This document shows, piece by piece, positions 25,155 through 43,242 of a DNA stretch of 63,051 nt (positions are counted from its first letter, which is position 1; each line of letters starts with the position of its first letter). The stretch comes from Azospirillaceae bacterium (GTDB lineage Bacteria; Pseudomonadota; Alphaproteobacteria; Azospirillales; Azospirillaceae). The position numbers were made by a program, and so were the translations under genes. Below the pieces are notes generated by a model, which searched no databases, was not told where the DNA came from, and worked only from the letters and a program-made list of their open reading frames with translations. The stretch lies in assembly GCA_035627915.1 (NCBI GenBank), contig DASPKT010000427.1, forward strand, positions 1 to 63,051, written 5' to 3'.

Positions 25155-26513
25155 TCAGAACCGCAGCGTGAACACGGTCCCGCCGCCGTCGGCGTCCGAG
25201 ACGCCGATGGTGCCGCCGTGGGCCAGCATGATCTGGCGGCAGAGCGACAGGCCGACGCCGGAGCCCTCGCGCTTGGTGGTGAAGAAGGGGACGAAGATCT
25301 TGTCGGCGACCTCGGGCGGGATGCCGGGGCCGTTGTCGGCGACCGACAGGATGACGCGGCCGTACTCGTCCAGGTGGGCGGCGACGCGGATGGCGGCGCC
25401 CTCGCGCCCCGCCAGCGCCTCCGCGGCGTTCTTCACCAGGTTGATCAGCACCTGGTCCAGCATGTCGGCGTCGGCCAGCACCTCCAGGCTGGGCGGCAGG
25501 ACCAGCGTGTCCAGCGCCACCCCGCGCTCCGCCAGCGCCGGGCCCATCAGCTTCTCCAGCCGCTCCATCATGTCCTTCAGGCGGAACCGCTCCATCTGCG
25601 GGCGCGGCACCTGGGTGAACTGGCGGTAGCGCTCCACGAAGCGCAGCAGCCCGCCGGCGCGGCGGGTCACCGTGTCCATCGCCTCCGCCACGTCGTTGAG
25701 GTCTTCGGCCAGGTCCTGCCTGTCGGCCAGCCGCTCCCGCAGGTCGCCCAGCAGCGACTGGGCGGTGCGGGCCAGCGAGGAGACGGGGGTCAGCGAGTTC
25801 ATCATCTCGTGCGTCAGCACCCGCACCAGGTCGTGCCAGGCGCGCACCTCCGTCGCCTCCAGCTCGCCCCCGATGTTCTGGAGGGAGACCAGCATGCGCG
25901 ACTCGCCGCCGATGGTCATCTGGGTCGCCTGGACGGTCAGCTGCTGAAGCCCCGGGCCGCCCACCACCTTCACCAGCCGCCGCTCCCCCGGCTTCAGGGT
26001 GCGCAGCGCGTCGGCGACGGTGCCGCCCTCGTCCAGCCGGCGGATCAGGTCCTCGTGCCCCAGCAGCTTGCGCGCGGCGTTGTTCAGCAGCTCCACCCGG
26101 CCGTCGGGGAAGACGGCGGCCAGCGCCACCGGCACGTGCTCCACCAGCACGTTCAGGTAGTCGGCCTGCTGCTCCTTGTCGGCGCGGGTGGCGCGGAACT
26201 TCTCCAGCACGCCGGAGAAGGCGGTGCCCAGCTCGTCGAAGGCGGTGCCGAGGCCCCGCATGGAGAAGCTCTGCTGGAAGTCGGAATGGGCGATGGCGGT
26301 CAGGAAGCGCGACAGCTCCCGGTTCGTCGTCTGCACCACCCGCAAGAGCCCGCCGATCTGAAGCAGCAGCGCCACCGCGACCAGGAACGCCGTCGCCCGG
26401 TACTCGGTGGCGACCAGCAGGATGCCCAGCAGCATGGAGGTGAGCGCCAGCAGCGCCACCCGGATGGTGACGTTCAGCTCGAACCGGCGTGCGCCGACAC
26501 GCTCAAAGCCCAT
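25155..26513 (-). CDS. Sensor histidine kinase with two closely spaced TM helices, a PAS-like region, HisKA and HATPase_c
   Basis: H-box is LTHEMMNSLTPV, N-box is LINLVKNAAEA, and G-boxes are DNGPGI and GSGVGLSL. The N-terminus has TM1 (TIRVALLALTSMLLGILLVA), a loop of only TEYR(A), then TM2 (TAFLVAVALLLQIGGLLRVV). Its start overlaps the regulator stop by 11 nt. Confidence 0.85.
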   Translation of the reverse strand: MGFERVGARRFELNVTIRVALLALTSMLLGILLVATEYRATAFLVAVALLLQIGGLLRVVQTTNRELSRFLTAIAHSDFQQSFSMRGLGTAFDELGTAFSGVLEKFRATRADKEQQADYLNVLVEHVPVALAAVFPDGRVELLNNAARKLLGHEDLIRRLDEGGTVADALRTLKPGERRLVKVVGGPGLQQLTVQATQMTIGGESRMLVSLQNIGGELEATEVRAWHDLVRVLTHEMMNSLTPVSSLARTAQSLLGDLRERLADRQDLAEDLNDVAEAMDTVTRRAGGLLRFVERYRQFTQVPRPQMERFRLKDMMERLEKLMGPALAERGVALDTLVLPPSLEVLADADMLDQVLINLVKNAAEALAGREGAAIRVAAHLDEYGRVILSVADNGPGIPPEVADKIFVPFFTTKREGSGVGLSLCRQIMLAHGGTIGVSDADGGGTVFTLRF

Positions 26514-27976: not shown

Positions 27977-28005
27977 TGTCCGGATGCGGACAGGGCAACT
28001 GTCCG
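27977..28005. promoter_or_regulatory. Candidate enhancer (UAS): TGTCCG-GATG-CGGACA palindrome plus an overlapping GGACAG-N5-CTGTCC
   Basis: A 16-bp palindrome lies at 27977-27992, and a third TGTCCG half-site at 28000-28005. It sits ~100 bp upstream of a sigma-54 -24/-12 element. The same 16-mer occurs as its reverse complement at 33428-33443. Confidence 0.55.
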
Positions 28006-28089
28006 ATATCGTACATCTGCACGGAAGCGAACGCATCCATTTTCGGCCGCATCCGGTCAGGAACCCAGGATTTCCGCGGCTTCCCGATC

Positions 28090-28104
28090 TGGCACGCCCC
28101 TTGC
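28090..28104 (+). promoter_or_regulatory. Sigma-54 (-24/-12) promoter TGGCAC-GCCCC-TTGC
   Basis: cTGGCACGccccTTGCc matches YTGGCACG-N4-TTGCW with correct spacing. It lies 48 nt upstream of the small-ORF ATG at 28152 and next to the divergent sigma-54 EBP gene. Confidence 0.7.
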
Positions 28105-28151: not shown

Positions 28152-28298
28152 ATGACCGACATCTCCATCCAGGCCACCGACACCTTCTCCTTCGGCAGCT
28201 TCCTGCGCGACGTGGTCGCCGAGCTGGCGAACCCGACGCTGGCCGTCGCCGCCGCCTTCGCCTGCGTGACGGTGAAGATGTTCGCCGGCTTCATGTGA
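28152..28298 (+). CDS. Small (48 aa) predicted membrane peptide, unknown family
   Basis: MTDISIQATDTFSFGSFLRDVVAELANPTLAVAAAFACVTVKMFAGFM. AAGGGA lies 9-14 nt upstream of the ATG. G/C third positions are strongly preferred (about 46 of 48 sense codons by eye). The C-terminus is a hydrophobic helix. The gene is the first in a sigma-54 transcript. It is a paralogue-like counterpart of 33561..33713. Confidence 0.5.
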   Translation: MTDISIQATDTFSFGSFLRDVVAELANPTLAVAAAFACVTVKMFAGFM

Positions 28299-28357: not shown

Positions 28358-30811
28358 ATGTTCCAGCACTACGCGACCATGGCCTGGCGCAACCTTGCGC
28401 GCCACCGGCTGCACGCCGCGATCAACCTGCTCGGCCTCAGCGTCGGGCTGGCGGCGGCGCTGCTGATCTTCATGTATGTGCGCCACGAACTCTCCTACGA
28501 GCGGCATTTCGCCAATTCCGACCGCATCTACCGCCTGGCGACGGAGCCGCTGGAGCCGGGGCAGGGCGACGACGGGCGCAAGCACGCCCTGTCGCCGCAG
28601 CCGATGGCCGAGCTGCTGATGCAGGCCGCCGACCAGATCGGCATCGAGGCGGCGACCCGGTACGAGTTCGGGACCTTCATCCTGGCGCGGGGCGAGGCGC
28701 GCTTCTTCGAGAAGACCACCTTCGTCCACGCGGACTTCTTCCGCATGTTCGACTTCCCCTTCCGCCACGGTGACCCGGCGACGGCCCTGGCGACGCCGGA
28801 CGGGATGGTGATGTCCCGCGAGCTGGCCCAGAAATACTTCGGCGACGCCGATCCCATCGGCCAGGCCATCCTGGTCAACAACAAGCACCTGTTCCGCGTC
28901 ACCGGCGTGCTGGACGAGCCGCGCGGCCCGTCGGAGCTGGAGGGGGAGCTGTTCGTCTCCACCGCCAACCCGGTCCTGTCGCCGCCGCTGTGGATGAACC
29001 AGAACGGCCCGTCCTTCGTGATGGCGCGGCCCGGCGTCAGCCAGGCGGAGCTGCAGCGCCGCATGGACGGGGCGCTGGAGGGGCTGCTGCCGCAGCAGGC
29101 GGTCGAGGACAACGGCCGCTTCCGCGTCCTGCTGGAGCGGCTGGCCGACACCCACCTGCATTCCGGGCGCTGGGTCTTCATCAACCAGGCCCCGGCCTCC
29201 GCCGACACGGTCTACGCCATGATCGGCATCGGGCTGGCGCTGCTGGCGATGGTCGCCATCAACTACACCAACCTCTCCACCGCGCGGGCCACCCTGCGCG
29301 CAAAGGAGATCGGCCTGCGCAAGGCGCTGGGCGCCGGCCGGGCGCAGCTGATCCGGCAGTTCATCGGCGAGTCGGTGGCGCTGTCGCTGGCCGGCCTGCT
29401 GCTGGCGCTGGTGCTGGTGGAGCTGTCGCAGACGGCCTTCGCCGACCATCTCGGCATCCGCTTCATGGGCTCCCTCGTGGGCGATCCCGTGGCGCTGCTG
29501 GCAGGCCTCGCCCTGGCGCTCGGCCTCGGCCTGCTGGGCGGCGCCTATCCGGCGCTGGTGCTGAGCGGCTTCCGCCCGGCCGCGGTGCTGCGCGCCGCCC
29601 GGGTGAACGTCGGCCCGGCCTCGCGGCTGCGCCAGGTGCTGGTCGTCACCCAGTTCGCCACCGCCGTGGTGCTCGCCATCTCCACCGTCGTCGTCTATGC
29701 CCAGGCCCGCTACGGCGCCACCGCCAACCTGGGCTTCCAGCCGGAGATGCGGGTGGTGCTGTCCGGCCTCGACCGCGAGCCCGTGGTGCAGCGGCGCGAG
29801 GTGCTGCGGGAGGAGATGCTGCGCATCCAAGGCGTCACCGGTGCCGCCACCTCCTGGATCGTGCCGGGCGCCTCGGGCTCCATGGGGCGCGGGCTCAGGC
29901 GGGCCGACCAGTCGCCGGAGGACGACACCAACGTCCAGCTCTTCCGCATCGGGCACGAGTACCTGGACGTGCTGGGCGTGCGCCTGCTGGCCGGCCGCAC
30001 CTTCTCCCGCGAGGTCCCCGCCGACGTGATGCCCCCGGCCAGCCGCGGCCCTGTCACCGGTGCCGTCAACGTGGTCATCAACCGCGAGGCGGTGCGCCGG
30101 CTGGGCTTCGCCTCGCCCGAGGCGGCGCTGGGCCAGCCGCTGGTCTTCGAGGACGACAACCGCGATCCCGTCACGGTCGTCGTGGTCGGGGTCAGCGACA
30201 ACGTCCGCCAGCACAGCGCCCGCAGCGAGATCCGCCCGGCCCTCTACATCGTGGAGCAGGAGGGGGTGTACCCGCAGTCCTTCATGACCCTGACCCTGGA
30301 CGGGCGCGAGCTGGACCGGACGCTTGCCGCCATCGACGCCACCTGGCGCCGCTTCGCCCCCGACCTCCCGGTGCGCCGGCGCTTCCTGGACGACCAGCTG
30401 GAGGCCATGTACCTCCAGGACCGGCGCCTTGCCGGCGTGCTGGCGGGCTTCTCCGGCCTGACCCTGGTCATCGCCTGCCTGGGCCTGTTCGCCCTGGCCG
30501 CCAGCGAGGCGGAGCGGCGGACCAAGGAGATCGGCGTGCGCAAGGTGCTGGGCGCCGGCGTGCCCGCCCTGGTGCGGCTCATGGTGTGGCAGTTCTCCCG
30601 CCCCGTCGCCATCGCCATCCTGATCGCCTGGCCGCTCGCCTGGTGGATGATGGGGAACTGGCTGCAGGGCTTCGTCCACCGCATCCCGCTGGACCCCACC
30701 CTGTTCCTCCTGACCGGGGTGGCTACCCTGTTGGTGGCATGGATGACCGTCGCCGGTCACGCGTTCAAGGTAGCGTCGGCCAGGCCCATCCAGGCCCTCC
30801 GATACGAGTAA
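28358..30811 (+). CDS. ABC transporter permease, duplicated FtsX/MacB-type (permease 1, 817 aa)
   Basis: The N-terminal TM is MFQHYATMAWRNLARHRLHAAINLLGLSVGLAAALLIF. It has two large extracytoplasmic domains, each followed by an FtsX-type 3-TM bundle (...KEIGLRKALGA... and ...KEIGVRKVLGA...). The C-terminus is ...IQALRYE. No ATPase gene lies in its operon. Confidence 0.85.
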   Translation: MFQHYATMAWRNLARHRLHAAINLLGLSVGLAAALLIFMYVRHELSYERHFANSDRIYRLATEPLEPGQGDDGRKHALSPQPMAELLMQAADQIGIEAATRYEFGTFILARGEARFFEKTTFVHADFFRMFDFPFRHGDPATALATPDGMVMSRELAQKYFGDADPIGQAILVNNKHLFRVTGVLDEPRGPSELEGELFVSTANPVLSPPLWMNQNGPSFVMARPGVSQAELQRRMDGALEGLLPQQAVEDNGRFRVLLERLADTHLHSGRWVFINQAPASADTVYAMIGIGLALLAMVAINYTNLSTARATLRAKEIGLRKALGAGRAQLIRQFIGESVALSLAGLLLALVLVELSQTAFADHLGIRFMGSLVGDPVALLAGLALALGLGLLGGAYPALVLSGFRPAAVLRAARVNVGPASRLRQVLVVTQFATAVVLAISTVVVYAQARYGATANLGFQPEMRVVLSGLDREPVVQRREVLREEMLRIQGVTGAATSWIVPGASGSMGRGLRRADQSPEDDTNVQLFRIGHEYLDVLGVRLLAGRTFSREVPADVMPPASRGPVTGAVNVVINREAVRRLGFASPEAALGQPLVFEDDNRDPVTVVVVGVSDNVRQHSARSEIRPALYIVEQEGVYPQSFMTLTLDGRELDRTLAAIDATWRRFAPDLPVRRRFLDDQLEAMYLQDRRLAGVLAGFSGLTLVIACLGLFALAASEAERRTKEIGVRKVLGAGVPALVRLMVWQFSRPVAIAILIAWPLAWWMMGNWLQGFVHRIPLDPTLFLLTGVATLLVAWMTVAGHAFKVASARPIQALRYE

Positions 30812-31169: not shown

Positions 31170-33335
31170 TCACCCCGGCACGCTGCGCGGGGTGCGGTGG
31201 CGGCCGGAGCGGGTGAGCTCCTCCTCCAGGGCGGCGACCAGGTCGGCGACGGCGAAGGGCTTGGGCAGGAGGCGCGCCTCGTCCTTCGGCACCAGCTCCT
31301 CGCTGTAGCCGGTCATCAGCACGACCGGCAGCAGGGGCCAGCGCTGGCGCACGATGCGCAGCAGGCCGACGCCGCTGAGCTCCCCCGGCATGACGATGTC
31401 GCTCAGCACCAGGTCCGCCTCGTCGCCGGCCTCCAGCATCCGCAGCGCCTCGTCGCCCGAGGTGGCGCGGCGCAGGCTGTAGCCGAGGTCGCCCAGGATG
31501 GCGCTCAGCATGCTGCCGACGACCGGGTCGTCCTCGACCAGCAAAATGCGGCCGCCGACCGCGTTCAGGCTGCGCCGCAGGTCGCCGCGGCCGGCCGCCG
31601 GCACCTTGTCGGAGCGCGGCAGCAGGATGGTGACCGTCGTGCCGAGGCCCTGGCGGCTGTCGATCAGGATGGTGCCGTGCGACTGGCGGGCGAAGCCGTA
31701 GGCCTGGCTGAGGCCGAGGCCGGTGCCGCCGTTCGCCTGCTTGGTGGTGAAGAAGGGCTCGAACGCGCGGGCCACCGTGTCGGGCGACATGCCGGCGCCG
31801 GTGTCCTCCACCGACAGGGCGACGTAGGCGCCGGTCAGCTCGCCCGGGTCCACGCCGGCGCTGCGGTTGGTGTTGCGCGCGCGGATGGTCAGCACGCCCG
31901 GTTCCGGCATTGCGTCGCGGGCGTTCGCCAGGATGTTGAGGATCGTGACCTCGAACTGGGTCTGGTCCACCTCGACCGTCCAGAGGTCGGGGGCGATGTC
32001 CACCTCGAGCCTGATGTCGGGGCGCAGCGTGCGCGCCATCAGCTCCGACATGGCGAGCAGCTGGTCGCGGATGGCGATCGGCTTGGGCTCCAGCGGCTGG
32101 CGGCGCGCGAAGGCGAGAAGCTGCCGGGTCAGCTTGGCGCCGCGGTCGACGGCCTGGTGCCCGGCCTGGAGCACGGGCGCCAGGCCGGCGGCGGACGCCT
32201 TGCGCTCCACCAGGGTCAGGCAGGCCGCCATGGCCTGGAGCAGGTTGTTGAAGTCGTGCGCGACGCCGCGGGTCATCTGGCCCATGGCCTCCAGCCGCCG
32301 CGCCGCCTCGTAGGCGATGTCCTGGCGGCGGCGGATGCGCAGCTCGCGCACGAACAGCCAGGCGAACAGCCCGGCCAGGGCGACGCAGAGCAGCCCGCCG
32401 CCGGCCATCAGCAGGGCGGCCTGCCGCAGCGGCGCCGCGAAGATCTCCCGGGGCAGGCCGAAATGGATGGACCAGCCGACATCCGGCAGCTTGCGGTAGA
32501 CCGAGCGCAGCGGGAACCCGTCCAGCCCGACGCTGTCGTAGAAGCCCTCCGGCTCCTCCCGGCGGACCTGGAGCACGCGGGCGCTGGCCATGGTGCCGAC
32601 CAGCGCCTCGTCGCCGCGGGTGCGGGCGACGATGTGGCCGCTGCCGTCCACCACCACGCCGATCCAGTCGGAGGGCAGCCCGTTCGCCAGCAGGATCTCC
32701 TTGAGGTGGCGGGGATCGACCACGGCGGACAGCAGGTAGCGCAGCCTTCCGTCGCGCACGACGGGCACCCGCACCGCGAAGGCCGCCCGGTTGCGCGGGC
32801 CGCGCAGGACCGTGCCGACGACCGGCGCGCCCGTGGCGACGGCGCGGGCGTGGCTCTCCAGGTCGACGACCTTGCCGGGGGCGCCGGCCACCTGCTCGGG
32901 CGCGTCGGCCAGCCGGTTGCCCTCCGGGTCGCTCAGGACCAGCGTCTTCCACAGGGGCTGGTGCGCCCGCGCCCGCTCCGCCATGGCGAAGAAGGCGGCG
33001 CGGTCGAAGCCGCCGGCGTCAACCGGCAGCGCCGCCGCCAGCATCTGCAGGCTGGCGACCTGGGCCGCCAGGTCGCCCTCCAGCCGCTGGGTCAGGTGCG
33101 CCACGCGGTTGGCGGCATCCTGCTCCATCGCCGCCTGCCGCTGTTGCAGCCAGGCGGCGCCCAGCATGACCGACAGCCCGACGATGGGCAGCAGGGCCGC
33201 CAGCGCCAGCAGGCTGAGGTGCCGCTGGGAAGAGGGACTGCCCGCGCGGCCGGACGGGGAACCGGGACGGGATCGGAGCGGCCACAAGGCGTCTGGCGTC
33301 CCTTCGCTGGATGCCGGGGCGGCGGGGAGCGGCAT
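31170..33335 (-). CDS. Hybrid sensor histidine kinase/response regulator with a periplasmic Cache-like sensor domain
   Basis: 721 aa. TM1 is followed by ~270 aa of extracytoplasmic domain, then TM2. H-box MTRGVAHDFNNLLQAM. HATPase motifs NILANARDAM, DTGAGM and GTGLGLS. C-terminal receiver (ILLVEDDPVV...DLVLSDIVMP...KP). Confidence 0.85.
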   Translation of the reverse strand: MPLPAAPASSEGTPDALWPLRSRPGSPSGRAGSPSSQRHLSLLALAALLPIVGLSVMLGAAWLQQRQAAMEQDAANRVAHLTQRLEGDLAAQVASLQMLAAALPVDAGGFDRAAFFAMAERARAHQPLWKTLVLSDPEGNRLADAPEQVAGAPGKVVDLESHARAVATGAPVVGTVLRGPRNRAAFAVRVPVVRDGRLRYLLSAVVDPRHLKEILLANGLPSDWIGVVVDGSGHIVARTRGDEALVGTMASARVLQVRREEPEGFYDSVGLDGFPLRSVYRKLPDVGWSIHFGLPREIFAAPLRQAALLMAGGGLLCVALAGLFAWLFVRELRIRRRQDIAYEAARRLEAMGQMTRGVAHDFNNLLQAMAACLTLVERKASAAGLAPVLQAGHQAVDRGAKLTRQLLAFARRQPLEPKPIAIRDQLLAMSELMARTLRPDIRLEVDIAPDLWTVEVDQTQFEVTILNILANARDAMPEPGVLTIRARNTNRSAGVDPGELTGAYVALSVEDTGAGMSPDTVARAFEPFFTTKQANGGTGLGLSQAYGFARQSHGTILIDSRQGLGTTVTILLPRSDKVPAAGRGDLRRSLNAVGGRILLVEDDPVVGSMLSAILGDLGYSLRRATSGDEALRMLEAGDEADLVLSDIVMPGELSGVGLLRIVRQRWPLLPVVLMTGYSEELVPKDEARLLPKPFAVADLVAALEEELTRSGRHRTPRSVPG

Positions 33336-33394
33336 CCTAGCCGAAAGCGCCCGGCGGCTTCACCCGCCTTGTCGGCATGGGAGGGGCGGGCGGC

Positions 33395-33450
33395 TGTCCG
33401 GTTCGGCGGGACCCTGTCCGCCGGCGCTGTCCGCATCCGGACAGTGTCCG
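33395..33450. promoter_or_regulatory. Candidate enhancer (UAS) cluster: TGTCCG-CATC-CGGACA palindrome plus three further TGTCCG half-sites
   Basis: TGTCCG occurs at 33395, 33415, 33428 and 33445. The 16-bp palindrome at 33428-33443 is the exact reverse complement of 27977-27992. It lies ~70 bp upstream of the second sigma-54 promoter. Confidence 0.55.
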
Positions 33451-33475
33451 GAAACGAACGGGGTAGATCGAACGA

Positions 33476-33488
33476 TAAGTTATTGATT
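33476..33488 (-). promoter_or_regulatory. IHF-consensus site (AATCAATAACTTA on the minus strand)
   Basis: Matches WATCAA-N4-TTR exactly. It is located between the UAS cluster and the -24 element, in the only AT-rich patch of this intergenic region. Confidence 0.45.
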
Positions 33489-33505
33489 TTGCACGCGCCG
33501 GACGC

Positions 33506-33520
33506 TGGCACGCCGCTTGC
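33506..33520 (+). promoter_or_regulatory. Sigma-54 (-24/-12) promoter TGGCAC-GCCGC-TTGC
   Basis: cTGGCACGccgcTTGCt lies 41 nt upstream of ATG 33561. It matches the 28089-28105 promoter at 15 of 17 positions. Confidence 0.7.
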
Positions 33521-33560
33521 TGATAATGCGGCGGGTAGAACACAAGAGGGGACGCCCGTC

Positions 33561-33713
33561 ATGACCGAACCGATCACCCGCACGGACACGCCCGCCACGG
33601 AGCGCACCGTCACCGAGCGCATCGAGGATGCGGTCACGTCAGTCAACCCGGACGTCTGGCTCGCCAGCGCCCTCGTGGTGGTGGTGATCCGATGCCTGGG
33701 CGGCCTCGTCTGA
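33561..33713 (+). CDS. Small (50 aa) predicted membrane peptide, unknown family
   Basis: MTEPITRTDTPATERTVTERIEDAVTSVNPDVWLASALVVVVIRCLGGLV. AGAGGGG lies 9 nt upstream of the ATG. It is hidden inside the shadow ORF 31197..33713. Its layout matches the 28152 peptide: MT(D/E) start, acidic/Thr-rich N-half, an NP motif, and a hydrophobic helix containing one Cys. Confidence 0.45.
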   Translation: MTEPITRTDTPATERTVTERIEDAVTSVNPDVWLASALVVVVIRCLGGLV

Positions 33714-33745: not shown

Positions 33746-35005
33746 ATGGGTATGGACCGAAAGATCGAGAAGCGCTCGCGCTTCAAGCGCCAGCACCTGA
33801 TCGGCGCCGCCGTCGGCGCGCTGGCCCTGGGGGCGGCGGGCTTCATGGCCGTCGGCGGCTCCGGCGGCAGCACCGTCCGGGTGGCCGAGGAGCGGCTGGT
33901 GACGGCCGAGGTGAAGCAGGGGCAGTTCGAGGACTTCATCCCCGTCCGGGGCGCCGTGGAGCCGCTGAACAGCGTGTTCCTGGACTCGGTCGAGGGCGGC
34001 CGGGTGGAGAAGCGCTTCGCCGAGGCCGGCCAGATGGTCAAGGCCGGCCAGCCCCTGGTGGAGCTGTCCAACACCGACCTGCAGCTGGAGGTCATCGCCC
34101 GCGAGGCGCAGGTGATCGAGCAGCTGAACCAGCTCCGCACGGTGGAGCTGGGCCTCCAGACCAACCGCCTCACCAACAAGCGCGAGCTGGTGGAGGTCGA
34201 GTACAAGCTGGTGCAGCTGAAGCGCGACCTCGACCGCCGCTCGCAGCTGGTGAAGACGAACGCCGTCAGCCAGGCCCAGTTCGAGGACAGCAAGGACGAG
34301 TACGACTACTACCAGCGCCGCCGCGAGGTCCTGCAGGAGAGCATCCGCGTCACCGACGGCATGCGCACCGAGCAGTACGAGCAGCTGAAGGCCGCCACCT
34401 CCAAGCTCCAGGAGAACCTGGAGTACGCGCGCCGCAACCTGGAGAACCTGGTGGTCAAGGCGCCTGTCGACGGCCAGTTGACCCAGCTGGAGGCGGAGAT
34501 CGGCCAGACCATGCAGCGCGGCCAGCGCCTGGGCCGGGTCGACCGCATCGACGGCTTCAAGGTCTCCGCCCAGGTCGACGAGTTCTACCTGCCGCGCCTG
34601 GACGTGGGCCAGACCGCCGAGGTGCAGATGGGCTCGGCCAACACGGTGCTGCGCGTCGCCAAGATCTACCCGCAGGTCCGCGACGGCCAGTTCCGGGTGG
34701 ACCTGGAGTTCGCCGCCGAGCCGCCCAAGGACATCCGCAGCGGCCAGACGCTCCAGATGCGCCTGAAGCTGGGCGCCACCACGTCGGCGCTGCTGATCCC
34801 CAACGGCGCCTTCTTCCAGGACACCGGCGGCGACTGGATCTTCGTCGTCGGCTCCGACGGCAAGTACGCCACCAAGCGCCGCGTCCAGCTCGGCCGCCGC
34901 AACGCCCAGGTCATCGAGGTCAAGGGCGGCCTGGAACCGGGCGAGCGCGTCATCACCTCCGCCTACGGCGACATGGTCCGCATGGACCGCATCCAGCTCA
35001 ACTGA
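33746..35005 (+). CDS. HlyD/MacA-type periplasmic adaptor (membrane fusion protein)
   Basis: N-terminal TM (LIGAAVGALALGAAGFMAV), a lipoyl-like hairpin, a long coiled coil (QLEVIAREAQVIEQLNQLRTVELGLQ...) and a beta-barrel C-domain. The alternative start at 33752 is equally possible. Confidence 0.8.
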   Translation: MGMDRKIEKRSRFKRQHLIGAAVGALALGAAGFMAVGGSGGSTVRVAEERLVTAEVKQGQFEDFIPVRGAVEPLNSVFLDSVEGGRVEKRFAEAGQMVKAGQPLVELSNTDLQLEVIAREAQVIEQLNQLRTVELGLQTNRLTNKRELVEVEYKLVQLKRDLDRRSQLVKTNAVSQAQFEDSKDEYDYYQRRREVLQESIRVTDGMRTEQYEQLKAATSKLQENLEYARRNLENLVVKAPVDGQLTQLEAEIGQTMQRGQRLGRVDRIDGFKVSAQVDEFYLPRLDVGQTAEVQMGSANTVLRVAKIYPQVRDGQFRVDLEFAAEPPKDIRSGQTLQMRLKLGATTSALLIPNGAFFQDTGGDWIFVVGSDGKYATKRRVQLGRRNAQVIEVKGGLEPGERVITSAYGDMVRMDRIQLN

Positions 35006-35034: not shown

Positions 35035-35715
35035 ATGCTGAAACTCGTGAACCTGACCAAGGTCTACCGCACCGAAGAGGTGGAGACGACCGCGCTGAAT
35101 TCCGTGAACATCCATGTCAAGCACGGCGAGTTCGTCGCCATCATGGGCCCGTCGGGCTGCGGCAAGTCCTCGCTGCTGAACATCATCGGCATGCTCGACA
35201 ATCCCAGCGGCGGCGAATACTGGTTCGACGGCGAGAACGTCGCCGGCTACGGCGAGCGCAAGCTGGCCGACATCCGCAAGAAGAACATCGGCTTCATCTT
35301 CCAGAGCTTCAACCTGATCGACGAACTCACCGTGTTCGAGAACGTCGAGCTGGCGCTGCTCTACCACGACATCCCGGCGCGCGAGCGCAAGGAGCGGGTC
35401 AAGGCGGCGCTGGAGAAGGTGAACATCGCCCACCGCGAGACCCACCTGCCGCAGCAGCTCTCCGGCGGCCAGCAGCAGCGCGTCGCCATCGCCCGCGCCG
35501 TCGTCTCCAAGCCCAAGATGCTGCTGGCGGACGAGCCGACCGGCAACCTCGACAGCGCCAACGGCGACGAGGTCATGAAGATGCTGACCGACCTGAACGC
35601 CGAGGGCACGACCATCGTCATGGTCACCCACTCCATGCCGCACGCCCAGTACGCGCGCCGCATCATCAACCTGTTCGACGGCCAGGTCGTGGCCGAGAAC
35701 CTGCGCGCCGCCTGA
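35035..35715 (+). CDS. ABC transporter ATP-binding protein (MacB/LolD-type NBD)
   Basis: Walker A GPSGCGKSS, Q-loop, signature LSGGQQQRVAIARA, Walker B MLLADEPT and H-loop VTHS. Confidence 0.9.
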   Translation: MLKLVNLTKVYRTEEVETTALNSVNIHVKHGEFVAIMGPSGCGKSSLLNIIGMLDNPSGGEYWFDGENVAGYGERKLADIRKKNIGFIFQSFNLIDELTVFENVELALLYHDIPARERKERVKAALEKVNIAHRETHLPQQLSGGQQQRVAIARAVVSKPKMLLADEPTGNLDSANGDEVMKMLTDLNAEGTTIVMVTHSMPHAQYARRIINLFDGQVVAENLRAA

Positions 35716-35762: not shown

Positions 35763-38219
35763 ATGCTGCGCAACTACATCGTCACTGCGGTACGCAACCT
35801 GCTGAAGCACCGGCTCTACTCGGCGATCAACATCGCCGGGCTGGCGGTCGGGCTGGCGGCCTGCATCCTGATCGCGCTGTTCGTGCGCGACGAGTTCAGC
35901 TACGAGCGCTTCTGGCCGAAGCTGGACCGGATGCACCGGGTCGCCCTGACCTTCTACATCCCGGGCCGCGAGCCCATGATGGTCGGCGACAGCCAGTTCG
36001 TCATGGGCCCGCTGCTGAAGGAGGACTTCCCCGGGATCGAGGAGGTGGTCCGCTTCGCGCCCCAGCGCACCCTGGTGGACCGCGCCGACAACCCCGCGCT
36101 GGAGGTGCTGACCTACGCCGACCCCGGCGTCTTCCGGGTGTTCGGCTACGAGTTCCTGCGCGGCACGGCCGACGGCGCGCTGGACCGCCCCGGCACCGTC
36201 GTGCTCACCCAGCGCATGGCGCGCAAGTGGTTCGGCGACGAGGACCCGGTCGGCCAGTCCCTGAAGGTCGACGGCCAGCACCTGCTGGAGGTCACCGGCG
36301 TGGTGAAGGACCTCCCTCACAACACGCACCTGAAGTCGGTCGACTTCCTGGTCGCCATGGAGTCGAAGAGCAACCGCCTGAACAAGGAGGCGCGGGAGAG
36401 CTGGACCACCATGCAGGGGTCCACCTACGTGCTGCTGCGCGACGGCGCCTCCGCCGCCGAGGTGCAGGCCGGGCTGAAGGACTTCGTCGCCCGCCGCGCC
36501 GGCAACATCGCCCTGCCGGGCGGCGCCGTCGCCGCCACCTCCATCTTCAAGTACGACCTCCAGCCCGTCGCCGACATCCACCTGCACTCCGCCGGCTTCC
36601 AGGGCGAGGAGGACCCGGGCGACTTCGGCATGGTCATGGCCTTCGCCGGCATCGCCGTCCTGATCCTGGGCATCGCCTGCATCAACTTCATGAACCTGGC
36701 GACGGCCCGCGCCTCGGGCCGGGCGCGGGAGGTCAGCATCCGCAAGGTGGTGGGCGCCCAGCGCCGCCAGATCGTGGCGCAGTTCCTGGGCGAGTCCGTG
36801 GTCGTCACCCTGCTGGCGCTGGTCATCGCCGTCGCCCTGGTGGAGCTGGCGCTGCCCTGGTTCTCCGGCTTCGTGAACAAGCCGCTGGGCATCGATTATG
36901 CCGGCAGCCTGGGCGACGTGGCGATGCTGGTGGCCCTGACCGTCCTGGTCGGCGTCGCCGCCGGTTCCTACCCCGCCTTCGTCCTGTCCGCCTTCAAGCC
37001 GGCGGCGGTGCTGAAGGCCAACAAGTCCTCGGCCGGCGGCGGGCGGCTGCGCGCGGTGCTGGTCGTGGTGCAGTTCGCCATCTCCATCTCCCTGATGGTG
37101 GCGACCGCCGTGGTGTACGCCCAGATGGAGTACGCGAAGTCCATGCGCCTCGGCTACGACCGGGAGCACGTGCTGGCGATCTCCGGCACCCACCGCGGCG
37201 CCGCCCGCGCGGCGATCGACAGCCTGCGCGAGGAGATCGGCAAGCTGCCGGGCGTCGTCACCGTGGCCCGCGCCGGCGGCTATCCCACGGACGGGAACGA
37301 GAACAACAACATCGTCCAGATGCCGGACAGCGATCCCAGCAACCCGCTGGTGATCGGCAACCAGAGCGCCGACGCCAACTTCTTCAAGGCGCTGGGCATC
37401 CAGACCGTGGCCGGCCGCACCTTCGACGAGAGCTTCGCCACCGACGTGCTGCCCGAAGACCCGGCGGAGGCGGCCAAGCGCCCGTCCGCCCTGGTGCTGA
37501 ACCGCGCCGCCGTGAAGCGCCTGGGCTTCGCCTCGCCGGAGGCCGCCATCGGCCAGACCTTCAAGATCGGCGTCAGCGCCGACGGGCTGTCCCCGGTGAC
37601 GGTGGTCGGCGTGGTGGACGACGTCCTCCAGGGCTCCATCCGGGCCGCGGTGAAGCCGATGATGTACTACATGGCCGACCCGTACCCCTTCCTGGTCGTG
37701 CGCCTGTCCGGCCAGGAGCTGAACGCCACGGTCAACCGGATCGACGAGACCTGGAAGCGCCTGGTCCCCGGCACGCCGATCCGCCGCACCTTCCTGGAGG
37801 ACAGCTTCAACGCCCTCTACGCGGCGGAGGAGCGGCAGGGCCAGATGTTCGCCACCTTCTCCGGCCTCGCCATCGTCATCGCCTGCCTGGGCCTGTTCGG
37901 CCTGGCCTCCTTCACCGCGGAGAAGCGCACGAAGGAGATCGGCATCCGCAAGGTGCTGGGCGCCAGCGTGCCCGAGATCGTGCGGCTGCTGGTGTGGCAG
38001 TTCTCCCGCCCGGTGCTGGTGGCGAACCTGATCGCCTGGCCGCTCGCCTGGTACGCCATGCGCGACTGGCTGGACGGCTTCGCCTACCGCGTCGAGCTGA
38101 GCCCGCTCTACTTCGCGGTGGCCGGGATCGCGGCGCTGACCATCGCCTGGGCGACGGTCGCCAGCCACGCCACCCGGGTCGCCATGACCAAGCCCTCCAG
38201 CGCCCTGCGCTACGAATAA
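35763..38219 (+). CDS. ABC transporter permease, duplicated FtsX/MacB-type (permease 2, 818 aa)
   Basis: Starts MLRNYIVTAVRNLLKHRLYSAINIAGLAVGLAACILIALFVRDEFSYE... It has two FtsX modules and ends ...SSALRYE. Confidence 0.85.
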   Translation: MLRNYIVTAVRNLLKHRLYSAINIAGLAVGLAACILIALFVRDEFSYERFWPKLDRMHRVALTFYIPGREPMMVGDSQFVMGPLLKEDFPGIEEVVRFAPQRTLVDRADNPALEVLTYADPGVFRVFGYEFLRGTADGALDRPGTVVLTQRMARKWFGDEDPVGQSLKVDGQHLLEVTGVVKDLPHNTHLKSVDFLVAMESKSNRLNKEARESWTTMQGSTYVLLRDGASAAEVQAGLKDFVARRAGNIALPGGAVAATSIFKYDLQPVADIHLHSAGFQGEEDPGDFGMVMAFAGIAVLILGIACINFMNLATARASGRAREVSIRKVVGAQRRQIVAQFLGESVVVTLLALVIAVALVELALPWFSGFVNKPLGIDYAGSLGDVAMLVALTVLVGVAAGSYPAFVLSAFKPAAVLKANKSSAGGGRLRAVLVVVQFAISISLMVATAVVYAQMEYAKSMRLGYDREHVLAISGTHRGAARAAIDSLREEIGKLPGVVTVARAGGYPTDGNENNNIVQMPDSDPSNPLVIGNQSADANFFKALGIQTVAGRTFDESFATDVLPEDPAEAAKRPSALVLNRAAVKRLGFASPEAAIGQTFKIGVSADGLSPVTVVGVVDDVLQGSIRAAVKPMMYYMADPYPFLVVRLSGQELNATVNRIDETWKRLVPGTPIRRTFLEDSFNALYAAEERQGQMFATFSGLAIVIACLGLFGLASFTAEKRTKEIGIRKVLGASVPEIVRLLVWQFSRPVLVANLIAWPLAWYAMRDWLDGFAYRVELSPLYFAVAGIAALTIAWATVASHATRVAMTKPSSALRYE

Positions 38220-38242: not shown

Positions 38243-40717
38243 ATGCTCGGGAACTACCTGACCGTCGCCTTCCGGAACCTGGTCAAGCACCGGCTCTACT
38301 CGGCGATCAACATCTTCGGCCTCGCGGTCGGCCTGGCCGCCGCGATCCTGATCCTGCTCTTCGTCCGCAACGAGCTGAACTACGACGGCTTCCACCGGGA
38401 CGCCGACCGCCTCTACCAGGTGGCGGTGGACGCCGAGATCCCCGGCCGCCCCGCCAACAAGATCTCGCGCACCATGCCGCCGGTCGGGCCGGCCATGAAG
38501 GACTACTTCGCCGAGGTGGAGGACGTCCTGCAGCTGATCCAGCAGAGCTCCGTCGTGCGGCGCGGCGGCGACGTCCAGTTCTCCGAGCAGATGATCAGCA
38601 CGACGCCGAACTTCTTCGACTTCTTCACCTACCGCTTCGTGAAGGGCGACCCGGCGCGGGCGCTGGCGGAGCCCGACTCGGTCGTCCTGACCGAGAGCAC
38701 GGCGCGCAAGTACTTCGGCGACGCCGACGCGCTGGACCAGGTCCTCACCATCGACCAGACCGACGTGCGGGTGACCGCCGTCGTCGCCGACCTGCCGCCC
38801 AACACGCAGCTGGACTTCACCATGCTGCTGAACCGGCAGTCCAAGGCCAGCCGCGCGGCGCCGTCGCTGCTGGAGAGCTGGGGCGCGCTCTGCTGCTTCA
38901 CCTACGTGAAGCTGAAGGAGGGCGCCGACGCCGACCAGGTGCGCGCCAACCTGAAGGCGTTCATGGAGGCGAAGGCCCCGGTCCAGCGCACGCCGACCGG
39001 CACCTTCAGCCCGGCCGAATCCTTCAAGCTGATGCTGCGCAACGTCACCGACGTGCACACCGACCCGATGCTGGGCGACCTGCGGCCGGGCACCAGCCGG
39101 ACGGAGATCTACATCTTCTCCGCCGTGGCGGCCCTGGTCCTGGTCATCGCCAGCATCAACTTCATGAACCTGGCGACCGCCCGCGCCACCCAGCGGGCGC
39201 GCGAGGTCAGCGTCCGCAAGGTGGTGGGCGCCAGCCGCACCCAGATCATCGCCCAGTTCATCGGCGAGTCCGTGCTGCTGACCGTGATCGGGCTGGTGCT
39301 GTCCATCGCGCTTGTGGAGCTGGCGCTGCCCTACTACTCCGACTTCCTGGGCCTGAAGCTCAGCTTCAACTACCTGTCGGACCCGGTCCTGCTGCTGATG
39401 CTGCTGGGGCTGACCCTGGTGGTCGGCACCGCCGGCGGCGCCTATCCCGCCTTCTTCCTGTCCGCCTTCAAGCCGGCGGCGGTGCTGAAGGGGGCGTCCA
39501 GCGGCACCTCGGGCGGCTCCGGCCGGCTGCGCGCGGCGCTGGTGGTGGTGCAGTTCTCCATCTCCATCGCGCTGATGACGGCCACCGCCGTGGTCTACGG
39601 CCAGCTCCTGTTCGCCACCGGCAAGGACCTGGGCTTCGACCGGGAGAACGTGGTCGTGCTGGAAGGCGTGGGCCGCCGCGACGCCCGCGACCGCCGCGAG
39701 GCGCTGATGGAGGCGCTGCGCAAGGACCCGCGCGTCGTCTCGGTGGCGTCGGGCAGCGTCATGCCGGGCGACGGGGACGAGAGCAACACCGGCATCCGCC
39801 TGCCGGGCGGCGACCCCAACGACAACCTGACGCTGCGCAATGACAGCGTGAACTACGACTACTTCCGCACCATGGGCATGCGGCTGGTGGCCGGCCGCGA
39901 CTTCGACCGGGAGCGGGGCGGCGACGCGCTGGTCCGCCCGGCGACGCCGCCGACGGCCGAGAACCCGCAGGTGCTGAAGGGGGCCGCGGTGGTCAACCGC
40001 TCCGCCGTCGCCCGGATGGGCTTCGCCTCGCCGGAGGCGGCGCTGGGCCAGACCTTCCAGGCCGGCGACGCCCCCAACAGCTCGCTGGAGCTGACCATCG
40101 TCGGCGTGCTGGAGGACTTCCACTACCGCTCCGTCACCGACCCGATCGCCGCCGGCTTCTTCTACATCGACCCGGCCGACCAGACGCAGGTGGCGGTGCG
40201 GATCAAGGGCGGCGACGTGCCGGGCGCGCTCTCCTTCGTCGACCGCACCTGGAAGGAGGTCTATCCGGACCTGCCGCTGCGCCGCCAGTTCCTGGACGAG
40301 CGCCTGCAGCAGCTCTACGAGCGCGAGCGCACCACCTCGGAGATGTTCGCCGCCTTCTCCGGCCTCGCCATCGTGATCGCCTGCCTGGGCCTGTTCGGCC
40401 TGGCCTCCTTCACCGCGGAGCGGCGGACCAAGGAGATCGGCCTGCGCAAGGTGCTGGGCGCCAGCGTGTCCGACATCGTGCGGCTGCTGGTCTGGCAGTT
40501 CAGCAAGCCGGTGCTGGTGGCGAACCTGATCGCTTGGCCGATCGCCTGGTACGGCGCGTCGCGCTGGCTGGAGGGCTTCGCCTACCGCATCGACCTCAGC
40601 CCGCTGATCTTCCTGGGCGCAGGATTCGCCGCCCTGCTGATCGCCTGGGCCACGGTCGGCATGCACGCCACCCGGGTGGCGGCGGCGAAGCCGGTGACGG
40701 CCTTGCGCTACGAGTGA
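38243..40717 (+). CDS. ABC transporter permease, duplicated FtsX/MacB-type (permease 3, 824 aa)
   Basis: ATG at 38243 (MLGNYLTVAFRNLVKHRLYSAINIFGLAVG...) lies inside track ORF 36227..40717, whose first 2 kb is a shadow frame. The protein ends ...VTALRYE. Confidence 0.85.
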   Translation: MLGNYLTVAFRNLVKHRLYSAINIFGLAVGLAAAILILLFVRNELNYDGFHRDADRLYQVAVDAEIPGRPANKISRTMPPVGPAMKDYFAEVEDVLQLIQQSSVVRRGGDVQFSEQMISTTPNFFDFFTYRFVKGDPARALAEPDSVVLTESTARKYFGDADALDQVLTIDQTDVRVTAVVADLPPNTQLDFTMLLNRQSKASRAAPSLLESWGALCCFTYVKLKEGADADQVRANLKAFMEAKAPVQRTPTGTFSPAESFKLMLRNVTDVHTDPMLGDLRPGTSRTEIYIFSAVAALVLVIASINFMNLATARATQRAREVSVRKVVGASRTQIIAQFIGESVLLTVIGLVLSIALVELALPYYSDFLGLKLSFNYLSDPVLLLMLLGLTLVVGTAGGAYPAFFLSAFKPAAVLKGASSGTSGGSGRLRAALVVVQFSISIALMTATAVVYGQLLFATGKDLGFDRENVVVLEGVGRRDARDRREALMEALRKDPRVVSVASGSVMPGDGDESNTGIRLPGGDPNDNLTLRNDSVNYDYFRTMGMRLVAGRDFDRERGGDALVRPATPPTAENPQVLKGAAVVNRSAVARMGFASPEAALGQTFQAGDAPNSSLELTIVGVLEDFHYRSVTDPIAAGFFYIDPADQTQVAVRIKGGDVPGALSFVDRTWKEVYPDLPLRRQFLDERLQQLYERERTTSEMFAAFSGLAIVIACLGLFGLASFTAERRTKEIGLRKVLGASVSDIVRLLVWQFSKPVLVANLIAWPIAWYGASRWLEGFAYRIDLSPLIFLGAGFAALLIAWATVGMHATRVAAAKPVTALRYE

Positions 40718-40794: not shown

Positions 40795-43242
40795 ATGTTC
40801 CTCAACTACCTGACGGTCGCACTCCGCTTTCTGGCCCGGCACAAGCTCTATGCCGCGCTGAACGTCGCCGGCCTCGCCGCCGGCCTGGCGGCCTGCGCCA
40901 TGATCGCCGTCTTCGTCCGCTACGAGCTGAGCTACGACGGCTTCCACGCGAAGGCGGACCGCATCTACCGGGTCAACCGGACCGAACACATCCCCGGCCG
41001 CGCACCCTCGACCTCCGGCGTCACCGCGCTGCCGACGGCGTCGGCCCTGAAGGACGGGCTGCCGGAGGTGGAGGCGGCGGTGCGGGTGCTGCGCTTCGGC
41101 GCCATCATCCGCCAGGGCGGGACCAGCTTCCAGGAACGGGTGGGCCGGGTCGATGCAGACTTCTTCCGCGTCTTCGACTACCGCGTCGTCTCCGGCTCGC
41201 TGGAGGGGGCGCTCGACCGGCCCGGCACCGTCGTCCTGACGGAATCCCGGGCGCGCAAGTATTTCGGCGACGCCGACGCGGTCGGCCGCAGCCTGGAACT
41301 GACCACCGGCCGGGTCTGGCAGGTCGCCGCGGTCGTCGCCGACCCGCCGACCAACTCCTTCCTGGAGAGCTACGGCATGTTCGTGCCGGTGGAGACCAGC
41401 TTCAGCGAGGGCTCCGACAAGCAGTTCCGCGACCGGCTGGAGGCCTGGGACAGCAACTGGGTGAACACCTTCCTGCTGCTGGCGCCCGGCGCCGACCCGG
41501 CCGCCGCGGAGGCGAACATCCCCGAGGTGCTGGCCCGGCGCGTGCCCGACTACCGGCCGCCGGCGGCCGGGCAGGGGCGCGTCACCTTCACCCTCTCCCT
41601 GCAGGCGCTGACCGCCATCCACACCGACCCGCAGGACGGGGAGCCCGGCACGCCGATGTCCGTCATCGTCGGCTTCGTCGGCGTGGGCGCGCTGATCCTG
41701 CTGATCGCCGGCATCAACTTCGTGAACCTCTCCACCGCCCGCGCCTCGCTGCGCGCCCGGGAGGTGGCGGTGCGCAAGACGCTGGGCGCCTCGCGCACGC
41801 GGCTGGTGGCGCAGTTCCTGGGCGAGTCGGTGCTGCTGGCGCTGCTCTCCGGCGTGGTGGCGCTGGCGCTCGTGGAGCTGCTGGCGCCCGCCTTCCTGGA
41901 GGTGCTGGACATGGCGCGGGTGAAGCAGGGCATGCGGCTGTGGGAGCTGGCGCTCTACGGGCTGCCGGTGCTGCTGGCGGTCGGGCTTCTGGCCGGCATC
42001 TACCCCGCCTTCGTCCTGTCCGCCTTCACCCCGGCGGAGGTGATGAAGGGCGGCAAGGCGGCGGGCGGGGCCGGGCGGCTGCGCGCGGCGCTGGTCGTCC
42101 TGCAGTTCGCCATCGCCATCGCGCTGGCGGTCAGCACCCTCGTCATGGTCTCGCAGACCCGCTTCGCCAGCTCCCAGCGCCTGGGCTTCGAGCACGAGAA
42201 CCTGCTGGTGGTCCGGGCCATGCTGCTGGACGAGGTGCGGCCGCGGCGCGACAGCTTCATCGAGGAGGTGCGCCGCCTGCCGGGCGTCGTCTCGGCGGCG
42301 CTGGCCTCCTGGGTCCCGTCCGACTCCTCGGAGCGCACCACCGACTTCCGCCTGCCGGCCGCCCCGCCGGAGGAGACGCTGACCCTGCGCACCGAGCCGG
42401 TGGATTTCGGCTACCTGGAGACGCTCGGCGCCCGGCTGCTGGCCGGCCGCACCTTCGACCGGGCACGCGAGGCCGACGCCATGCCGGAAGGGGCGGAGCG
42501 GAAGGAGGCGGCCGTCGTCGTCACCGCCTCCATGCTGCCCGTCCTGGGCGCCCGCACGCCCGAGGAGGCGGTGGGCCGGACGCTGTACTATCCCCGCGAC
42601 GAGGGCGACCTGACCCTGACGGTCGCGGGCGTGGTGGACGACATCCAGTTCTCCACCGCCCGCAACCCTGTCGTCCCGACCGTCTTCATGATCGACCGCT
42701 CGGCGCTGGGCTCGCTGGTGGTGCGGCTGGCGGCGGGGGCGGGGCCGAACACGCTGGCGGAGATCGACCGCACCTGGCGGACGATGTACCCCGACGTTCC
42801 GGTGCGCCGCACCTTCCTGGAAGACCAGATCCACCGCCTCTACGAAACCGAGGCGCGCCAGGGCGCGGTGCTGGCGGCCTTCGCCGGCCTCGCCATCGTG
42901 ATCGCCTGCCTGGGCCTGTTCGGCCTCGCCTCCTTCACGGCGGAGCGGCGGACCAAGGAGATCGGCCTGCGCAAGGTGCTGGGCGCGCGGGTCGGCGACA
43001 TCGTGCGGCTGCTGGTCTGGCAGTTCAGCAAGCCGGTGCTGCTGGCGAACCTGGTGGCCTGGCCGGCGGCCTGGTTCGCCATGCGGCGCTGGCTGGACGG
43101 CTTCGCCTACAGGATCGAGCTGGACCCGCTGGTCTTCCTGGCGGCCGGCGCCGCCGCCCTTGTGATCGCCTGGACGACCGTGGCCGCGCACGCCGCCCGC
43201 GTCGCCCGCGCCAAGCCCGTCAACGCCCTGCGCTACGAATAG
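40795..43242 (+). CDS. ABC transporter permease, duplicated FtsX/MacB-type (permease 4, 815 aa)
   Basis: ATG at 40795 (MFLNYLTVALRFLARHKLYAALNVAGLAAG...). The protein ends ...VNALRYE. Confidence 0.85.
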   Translation: MFLNYLTVALRFLARHKLYAALNVAGLAAGLAACAMIAVFVRYELSYDGFHAKADRIYRVNRTEHIPGRAPSTSGVTALPTASALKDGLPEVEAAVRVLRFGAIIRQGGTSFQERVGRVDADFFRVFDYRVVSGSLEGALDRPGTVVLTESRARKYFGDADAVGRSLELTTGRVWQVAAVVADPPTNSFLESYGMFVPVETSFSEGSDKQFRDRLEAWDSNWVNTFLLLAPGADPAAAEANIPEVLARRVPDYRPPAAGQGRVTFTLSLQALTAIHTDPQDGEPGTPMSVIVGFVGVGALILLIAGINFVNLSTARASLRAREVAVRKTLGASRTRLVAQFLGESVLLALLSGVVALALVELLAPAFLEVLDMARVKQGMRLWELALYGLPVLLAVGLLAGIYPAFVLSAFTPAEVMKGGKAAGGAGRLRAALVVLQFAIAIALAVSTLVMVSQTRFASSQRLGFEHENLLVVRAMLLDEVRPRRDSFIEEVRRLPGVVSAALASWVPSDSSERTTDFRLPAAPPEETLTLRTEPVDFGYLETLGARLLAGRTFDRAREADAMPEGAERKEAAVVVTASMLPVLGARTPEEAVGRTLYYPRDEGDLTLTVAGVVDDIQFSTARNPVVPTVFMIDRSALGSLVVRLAAGAGPNTLAEIDRTWRTMYPDVPVRRTFLEDQIHRLYETEARQGAVLAAFAGLAIVIACLGLFGLASFTAERRTKEIGLRKVLGARVGDIVRLLVWQFSKPVLLANLVAWPAAWFAMRRWLDGFAYRIELDPLVFLAAGAAALVIAWTTVAAHAARVARAKPVNALRYE

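Follow-up and report, generated by a model that had tools for sequence, protein, structure and literature searches.

A 63,051-nucleotide (nt) stretch of Azospirillaceae DNA (contig DASPKT010000427.1, assembly GCA_035627915.1; hereafter the window) carries a small open reading frame (ORF), pep2, directly ahead of genes for an ATP-binding cassette (ABC) transporter of the MacB type. We are confident that this pump operon includes pep2 as a genuine small-protein gene with a function. More tentatively, we read its product as a small, C-terminally anchored membrane protein, encoded by the first cistron of a sigma-54 operon for a MacAB-like (type VII ABC) tripartite pump, found only in an Azospirillaceae clade and serving the pump as an accessory or modulatory subunit. 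The case that pep2 belongs to the system is made by its own conservation, and not by paralogy with peptide 1, a second small peptide encoded in the window. The ORF and its signals are as follows.

33506-33520, forward strand: sigma-54 promoter (-24 TGGCAC, -12 TTGC), TGGCACGCCGCTTGC; an exact match, kept across the family loci
33545-33551, forward strand: Shine-Dalgarno-like sequence AGAGGGG, 9 nt ahead of the pep2 ATG
33561-33713, forward strand: pep2 ORF, 50 codons; translation MTEPITRTDTPATERTVTERIEDAVTSVNPDVWLASALVVVVIRCLGGLV

Coding evidence for pep2

The coordinates, the 50-amino-acid (aa) translation and the placement of the purine-rich element are as an earlier description of this DNA (the original prediction) had them, and the HlyD-type adaptor gene does start 32 nt beyond the pep2 stop, at position 33746 (ATG GGT ATG GAC). 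The promoter is likewise present, with 40 nt between its -12 GC and the ATG where 41 had been counted, a difference of 1 nt. The ORF had further been described as invisible, and it does share its frame and stop codon with a mechanical 838-aa ORF (31197-33713), the antisense shadow of a hybrid kinase gene on the reverse strand (31170-33335). It is hidden only from a list of longest ORFs, however, and gene callers annotate members of the family. The exact pep2 protein has already been gene-called on five public metagenome contigs, on one of which (42 kb) the 48-aa peptide 1 is called too, and family members in RefSeq/GenBank carry the label 'hypothetical protein' (e.g. WP_330495018, WP_169654813 and WP_165772180).

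The G+C content of the window is 73%, a composition at which spurious long ORFs are frequent, and pep2 sits within just such a shadow ORF. As for a chance ORF without a product, pep2 has the marks of coding sequence. Its G+C by codon position is 0.65/0.51/0.90, a pattern like that of the neighbouring genes, whose third-position G+C (GC3) is 0.96-0.97 (~0.96-1.00 for window genes overall), and in the other two frames of the same stretch the G+C-rich position falls elsewhere. Across all 24 family loci the GC3 of the ORF is 0.81-0.96, against a locus G+C of 0.61-0.73. Between the window and the closest Azospirillaceae metagenome-assembled genome (MAG), the last 34 codons differ at 15, of which 10 are synonymous and 5 non-synonymous; the N-terminal third differs and has a 6-nt indel, and the leader ahead of the ATG has diverged. 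The Nei-Gojobori ratio of non-synonymous to synonymous substitution rates (dN/dS, or omega) is 0.05 in the closest-MAG pair (against L009) and 0.23 against Nitrospirillum, close pairs alone being used for this estimate. Composition, gene calls, omega, profile matches and conservation in 23 of 23 close loci (below) all contradict the chance-ORF explanation, which we regard as negligible and count as refuted by protein-level conservation across genomes. The original description of a small membrane peptide is thus borne out as a genuine gene for a small protein with a hydrophobic tail.

Distribution and predicted shape of the pep2 family

Word-indexed homology searches returned two relatives for pep2 and none for peptide 1, and the family was recovered through the genomic neighbours of adaptor homologues. 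An alignment of adaptor homologues served as the query against one genome per species, and 80 loci were kept; 88 loci were fetched in all, including eight contigs (L001-L008) that carry pep2 or its closest homologue. Wherever adaptor identity reaches 61% or more (23 loci), the same place is taken without exception by a homologous ORF 43-66 aa long. These loci belong to Niveispirillum, Nitrospirillum, Aerophototrophica, Oleisolibacter and Azospirillaceae/Rhodospirillaceae MAGs, and all have a Shine-Dalgarno-like purine-rich sequence before the ATG. The ATG lies 22-44 codons ahead of the invariant P-D-x-W-L (28 codons in 10 of the 24 loci), and 26-104 nt separate the stop from the adaptor start. 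The window copy has the features that define the family, namely a length of 43-66 aa, the motif with a hydrophobic C-terminus, and a position between a sigma-54 promoter and the adaptor gene.

A hidden Markov model (HMM) of the family, run in six frames over the window and the 88 loci, identified one ORF each in the window and in 31 loci (E 1e-14 to 1e-24), and no other match in this set was better than E≈0.7. The 31 positive loci are the eight contigs and the 23 close genomic loci, all of them this operon or a close relative. By the same HMM, a pep2 homologue is absent from 57 loci in which the sigma-54 promoter is present and adaptor identity is 55% or lower, including those of Kordiimonas, Emcibacter, Iodidimonas, Thalassotalea and Woeseiaceae. 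The question whether a comparable ORF stands upstream of orthologous operons therefore has a divided answer: it does in the close group (23/23), but not in the more distant one (0/57). Because the ORF is missing from these more distant operons, sequence comparison identifies pep2 as a lineage-specific addition in an Azospirillaceae clade and not as a core part of the pump system.

Profile searches of 1.84 billion representative proteins gave 11 matches at E<=1e-3, eight of which are pep2-family proteins of 44-60 aa. The remaining matches are long proteins (508-1741 aa, 5-8 stretches each) whose alignments are confined to short segments within profile positions 10-33; we set these aside as presumably spurious on account of that short coverage. 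Searches of both peptides against Pfam (E<=0.01), NCBIfam (E<=1) and the PDB found no relative. Two MAG contigs labelled Hydrogenophaga intermedia (L049) and Rhizobium sp. (L011) carry Niveispirillum-type operons, with adaptors 72-74% identical and the pep2 subtype seen in such operons, and are probably mis-binned.

We read 20 of the loci without pep2 base by base. In these, the stretch from the promoter to the adaptor motif G-M-D-R-[RK]-[IV]-E-K is in frame with the adaptor and lengthens its N-terminus by 30-45 aa, an extension that is polar, basic and Gly/Pro-rich (among L031-L088, e.g. L033:5764-6060 and L069:5785-6060), in agreement with the 434-463-aa gene models of distant adaptors. Adaptors of the pep2 clade have no extension and start directly with M-G-M-D-R-K, so that presence of pep2 coincides with loss of the adaptor extension. 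We considered pep2 as a split-off adaptor N-terminus and rejected this, since the extension is basic and Gly/Pro-rich, has no hydrophobic helix and is dissimilar to pep2.

The conserved part of the protein comprises the C-terminal ~34 residues, L-x-[DE]-R-[IVL]-[ED]-D-x-[VLI]-x-x-[VI]-[NH]-P-D-[LVI]-W-L followed by a tail. The tail consists of 16-19 mostly hydrophobic residues; near position +14 an R, S, N, H or P often intervenes, with [WCFI]-L coming next. Residues M1, P30, D31, W33, L34 and L46 are invariant, and R20 and D23 nearly so. The original prediction had singled out an NP motif, a helix with one Cys and a terminal Gly pair. The N/H-P is kept in the family, but the other two are lineage details: the Cys is limited to Nitrospirillum and the window lineage, other members having W, F, I or L instead, and the Gly pair to the window lineage and some Nitrospirillum copies (elsewhere GR, GA or NI, or missing). 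The N-terminal 10-40 residues vary between members and are polar, with a net acidic character. In Nitrospirillum iridis (L023:5558-5746) this part contains an in-frame tandem duplication, RPLIGRPLIGRPWIE, that brings the protein to 62 aa; because it falls in the variable N-terminal segment, it is consistent with weak constraint there.

AlphaFold2 (AF2) predicts two helices in pep2, residues 12-27 and residues 30-48, separated at N-P; the tail has a predicted local distance difference test score (pLDDT) of 83-88. The first helix is amphipathic (hydrophobic moment ~0.55). Tail positions vary yet remain hydrophobic, for which reason we liken the tail to a membrane anchor. Net charge before the hydrophobic helix is -3 to -6 in almost all members, and that of the tail is 0 or +1.

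The sigma-54 operons and peptide 1

As originally predicted, pep2 heads an operon of adaptor, ATPase and four permease genes: it is the first cistron behind the second of two sigma-54 promoters, and those genes lie downstream. No terminator, Rfam match or unusual or stable RNA fold was found between pep2 and the adaptor gene. The other features of the region are listed below.

24419-24751, reverse strand: Gp49-like toxin gene (HigB/RelE-type)
25155-26513, reverse strand: histidine kinase with two adjacent transmembrane helices and no periplasmic loop
26503-27921, reverse strand: NtrC-type sigma-54 activator with a Sigma54_activat domain
28090-28104, forward strand: first sigma-54 promoter, exact TGGCAC-N5-TTGC, ahead of peptide 1
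28152-28298, forward strand: peptide 1, 48 aa, preceding a solo permease
28358-30811, forward strand: solo (fifth) permease, duplicated MacB_PCD+FtsX, transcribed separately
31170-33335, reverse strand: hybrid histidine kinase/receiver, divergent from pep2
33428-33443: palindrome TGTCCGCATCCGGACA of the pattern TGTCCG-N4-CGGACA, a putative upstream activator site
33746-35005, forward strand: periplasmic adaptor of the HlyD/membrane fusion protein type; best NCBIfam model DarC, under its cutoff
35035-35715, forward strand: ABC ATPase, 226 aa, a bare nucleotide-binding domain; best NCBIfam model DarD, under its cutoff
35763-38219, 38243-40717, 40795-43242 and 43275-45749, forward strand: four tandem duplicated permeases of ~820 aa with two MacB_PCD+FtsX modules each

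Exact TGGCAC-N5-TTGC sites occur twice in the 63-kb window, against 0.13 expected, with one ahead of each small ORF, and a sigma-54 promoter lies 40-94 nt upstream of the pep2 ATG in 24 of 24 family loci. The palindromic pattern is found three times in the window (27977-27992, 28000-28015 and 33428-33443; 0.22 expected), in each case upstream of one of the two sigma-54 promoters and about 80-110 nt away. It is present in 22 of the 24 family loci, ~78 nt upstream of the promoter, and is conserved against the related MAG. The palindrome is likely a binding site for the NtrC-type activator, and would then define a small regulon. Because they have the promoter and palindrome elements in common, the peptide 1 unit and the pep2 unit can be taken as one regulon.

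Over the 80 loci, the core order is kinase and activator, divergent sigma-54 promoter, adaptor, ATPase and permeases, with 1-3 permeases inside the fetched 6-kb downstream flank of each locus; the kinase/activator pair adjoins the operon in most orthologous loci. Such multi-permease operons recur over these loci in Alpha- and Gammaproteobacteria and in Myxococcota and Bdellovibrionales MAGs, and literature searches returned no description of a sigma-54/MacB-like multi-permease system. In the window, five duplicated permeases (~30-50% mutual identity) use a single ATPase gene and a single adaptor gene. In the kinase at 25155-26513, the transmembrane helices directly adjoin (residues 13-62) and are followed by a PAS-like segment and the kinase core. 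This is the intramembrane-sensing type, reminiscent of BceS-like kinases, in which sensing relies on their ABC transporter. The toxin gene and an upstream helix-turn-helix antitoxin ORF (L001:859-1528) adjoin this kinase gene at the edge of the locus.

The pump proteins fall well short of the curated models that they most resemble. NCBIfam scores are 136 for DarB (permease 35763-38219; cutoff 700), 221 for DarC (cutoff 450) and 282 for DarD (cutoff 375). Against the ADOP model TIGR03434 (cutoff 622), 300 bits were obtained for permease 28358-30811 and 314 bits for permease 35763-38219, the two that were scanned, so the permeases are ADOP-like in architecture only and are not TIGR03434 members. 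ADOP permeases are typically orphans without an adjacent ATPase; the operon permeases here differ in having an ATPase gene next to them. Between 19.7 and 53.6 kb of the window we found no outer-membrane factor, radical-SAM enzyme, peptidase or other modifying enzyme.

Peptide 1 is also coding-like. Its GC3 is 0.98, and its C-terminal 27 residues are nearly identical in a related MAG (L005:4827-4985). Homology and metagenome scans located it only in the window lineage and this one MAG, and as a further metagenome scan for relatives returned the same two lineages, no better profile could be built. The solo permease of Aerophototrophica (L014:1361-3806) has a sigma-54 promoter ~45 nt from its start codon and no leader ORF; the gap between promoter and start leaves no room for a peptide-1-like ORF.

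The two peptides are alike in leader position, sigma-54 promoter, upstream palindrome and length (48-50 aa), and both have a variable polar N-terminus and an amphipathic helix. Both also have exactly 20 residues after N-P, position +14 being basic and position +18 Gly. They differ in that peptide 1 has T, A, V and F where pep2 has D31, W33, L34 and L46, and therefore has no D-x-W-L. The alignment that had been drawn by eye does exist: anchored at the C-terminus, the last 22 residues align ungapped with a score of 34, a value reached by 0 of 20,000 shuffles, although the register was chosen after inspection. Smith-Waterman comparison with shuffled sequences gives p≈0.003 for this single pair, under global or segment shuffling, but the homology methods are all negative. 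BLASTP returned no alignment between the two at E<=100, and the six-frame pep2 HMM with filters off missed peptide 1 at E<=10. Profile-profile comparison by hhalign of a 19-sequence pep2 profile with the peptide-1 pair gave a probability of 1% (E 0.054), and the whole-library profile search with pep2 returned no peptide-1-like protein. Paralogy of the two leader peptides, the main argument of the original prediction, thus finds no support in BLASTP, hhalign, HMM or library searches. Common ancestry is not demonstrated, and the sequences would make the two at most very diverged paralogues or convergent analogues. Peptide 1 belongs to the same regulon as pep2, and not demonstrably to the same protein family.

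Proposed role of pep2 and alternatives

Pump genes always follow pep2 in its loci, and the protein is dispensable in other lineages; both points speak for an accessory role. The histidine kinase/NtrC-type pair would induce pep2 together with the pump genes, and the protein would then insert into the inner membrane. Its predicted orientation is N-out/C-in, by Pf3-coat-like, YidC-type insertion without a signal peptide. This orientation is favoured by the acidic N-terminal part and the neutral or +1 tail under the positive-inside rule, an established principle of membrane topology. The hydrophobic helix would pack on a transmembrane partner in the pump, most likely a duplicated permease, and the acidic amphipathic helix and the NPDxWL motif would form an interface at the membrane surface. 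A permease is suggested as the common partner because peptide 1, which has the same architecture, precedes a permease alone.

Two known small proteins help to frame this proposal. AcrZ (YbhT) is a 49-aa accessory subunit of the Escherichia coli AcrB resistance-nodulation-division (RND) pump (reviewed in PMC8277102 and PMC5404916). Like it, pep2 is ~50 aa long, has one hydrophobic helix and is co-regulated with an efflux pump whose core machine works without it; this AcrZ-like dispensability fits because pep2 is absent from most orthologous pumps. The two differ in that pep2 has no sequence similarity to AcrZ and is not a member of its family (Pfam, NCBIfam and PDB), and in that AcrZ partners an RND transporter whereas the pump to which pep2 would bind is a MacB-type ABC transporter. 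The anchor of AcrZ is N-terminal, and its gene lies apart from acrAB. The Pf3 coat protein is the model for insertion: N-out single-span proteins of this type are inserted by YidC. It resembles pep2 in being short and lacking a signal peptide, with an acidic N-tail, a hydrophobic helix and a basic or neutral C-end. This likeness is one of topology only, the pep2 N-tail being longer (~30 aa) and its insertion a prediction.

Several points weigh against the reading of pep2 as a membrane-anchored pump subunit. The hydrophobic stretch measures only 16-19 residues, and P, R, S, N or H often interrupt it, which makes membrane spanning uncertain, and the AF2 model was built on three sequences and has a mean pLDDT of 69. 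Pfam, NCBIfam and PDB searches gave no homology to any characterised small protein. As many as 57 orthologous pumps work without pep2. Its dN/dS climbs to 0.3-1.0 in distant pairs; these values are uninformative because synonymous sites are saturated and GC3-constrained. Finally, the evidence does not distinguish a pump partner from a kinase partner.

That last point bears on an alternative in which pep2 is a feedback modulator of signalling, similar to MgrB or SafA, that binds the transmembrane part of the intramembrane-sensing or the hybrid kinase and tunes the sigma-54 response and not the pump. The kinase next to the activator, with two adjoining transmembrane helices and no periplasmic sensor, would need a membrane partner for its input, and both pep2 and peptide 1 come first behind their respective regulon promoters. 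The hybrid kinase gene also directly adjoins pep2 in the window. As with MgrB and SafA, pep2 would be small, have a single helix and be induced by the two-component system whose regulon includes it, but it has no homology to either and is linked to pump genes, not to the kinase. Niveispirillum and Nitrospirillum loci have no homologue of the system's kinase or activator within 6 kb of pep2 and yet always have the pump genes behind it, and the closest relative keeps pep2 without a hybrid kinase at that position. We judge this alternative unlikely.

Improbable, in our view, is a role as a cis-acting leader ORF, whose translation or nascent-chain stalling would control translation or transcription of the adaptor gene while the released peptide had no role of its own. 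The position of pep2, with its stop 26-104 nt before the adaptor start, would suit a leader, and the conserved last ~34 residues approximate the length of the ribosomal exit tunnel. However, the spacer varies widely in length, and there is neither an attenuator or terminator nor a stable or unusual RNA structure. The tail is variable but hydrophobic, like an anchor and unlike a fixed arrest motif, and the more distant orthologous operons lack a leader ORF altogether.

Less probable still, to the point that we give it very little credence, is that pep2 is a product exported by the pump, such as a bacteriocin, a signal peptide or the precursor of a ribosomally synthesized and post-translationally modified peptide (RiPP), comparable to darA before darBCD or to a double-glycine peptide. 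In both loci a small ORF lies directly ahead of adaptor, ATPase and duplicated-permease genes, DarC and DarD, models of the darobactin exporter, are the best matches for the adaptor and ATPase, and the window copy has ...CLGGLV at its end. Against this, the DarB, DarC and DarD scores are far under the curated cutoffs, and the pep2 locus has no DarE radical-SAM enzyme and no W-N-W-S-K-S-F-like core, its tail being hydrophobic. Neither 19.7-53.6 kb nor the conserved neighbourhood contains a radical-SAM enzyme, protease or modifying enzyme. Conservation in pep2 is the opposite of that in RiPPs, which have a conserved leader and a variable core, and the same pump occurs in 57 loci without the peptide. 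Two specific forms of this idea were rejected: a darobactin-type RiPP locus, as the peptide has no NCBIfam match, radical-SAM genes are absent from 19.7-53.6 kb and DarBCD are under cutoff; and a double-glycine leader or bacteriocin, as neither the GG nor the Cys is conserved in the family, the ATPase is a bare 226-aa nucleotide-binding domain without a C39 peptidase domain, and the permeases are MacB_PCD+FtsX proteins.

We thus return to pep2 as a pump protein. The accessory-subunit mechanism specifically, drawn by analogy, is put forward even more cautiously than the overall description given at the outset. A bolder version, which we consider doubtful, is that pep2 founds a family of small subunits that only tripartite pumps of the MacB type (type VII ABC) possess. 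Its members would be N-out without a signal peptide, with the conserved acidic amphipathic helix at the periplasmic membrane surface by the permease periplasmic domains or the adaptor. They might tune which of several interchangeable permeases engages, or might signal the activity of the pump to the sensor-less kinase. The solo permease would then have its counterpart in peptide 1, which would have evolved independently or diverged strongly.

Regardless of mechanism, pep2 represents a small-protein family that is new and of narrow distribution and that belongs to a general kind already known, the small membrane proteins encoded with transport machines. Literature searches returned nothing relevant on the pep2 family or on a small protein partner of MacAB, and to our knowledge no small membrane protein partner has been described for a MacB-type ABC pump. 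Small membrane proteins are under-annotated, and pep2 is a well-supported candidate for a pump partner, being conserved, co-transcribed and marked by a clear motif; it occurs in the culturable, plant-associated Nitrospirillum and Niveispirillum. If pep2 is merely a lineage-specific accessory, it would enlarge the small-protein catalogue only modestly. Of more general interest than the peptide may be the wider system, combining as it does a sensor-less kinase, an NtrC-type activator and a sigma-54 promoter with one adaptor, one ATPase and 2-5 duplicated permeases, and being widespread in Proteobacteria.

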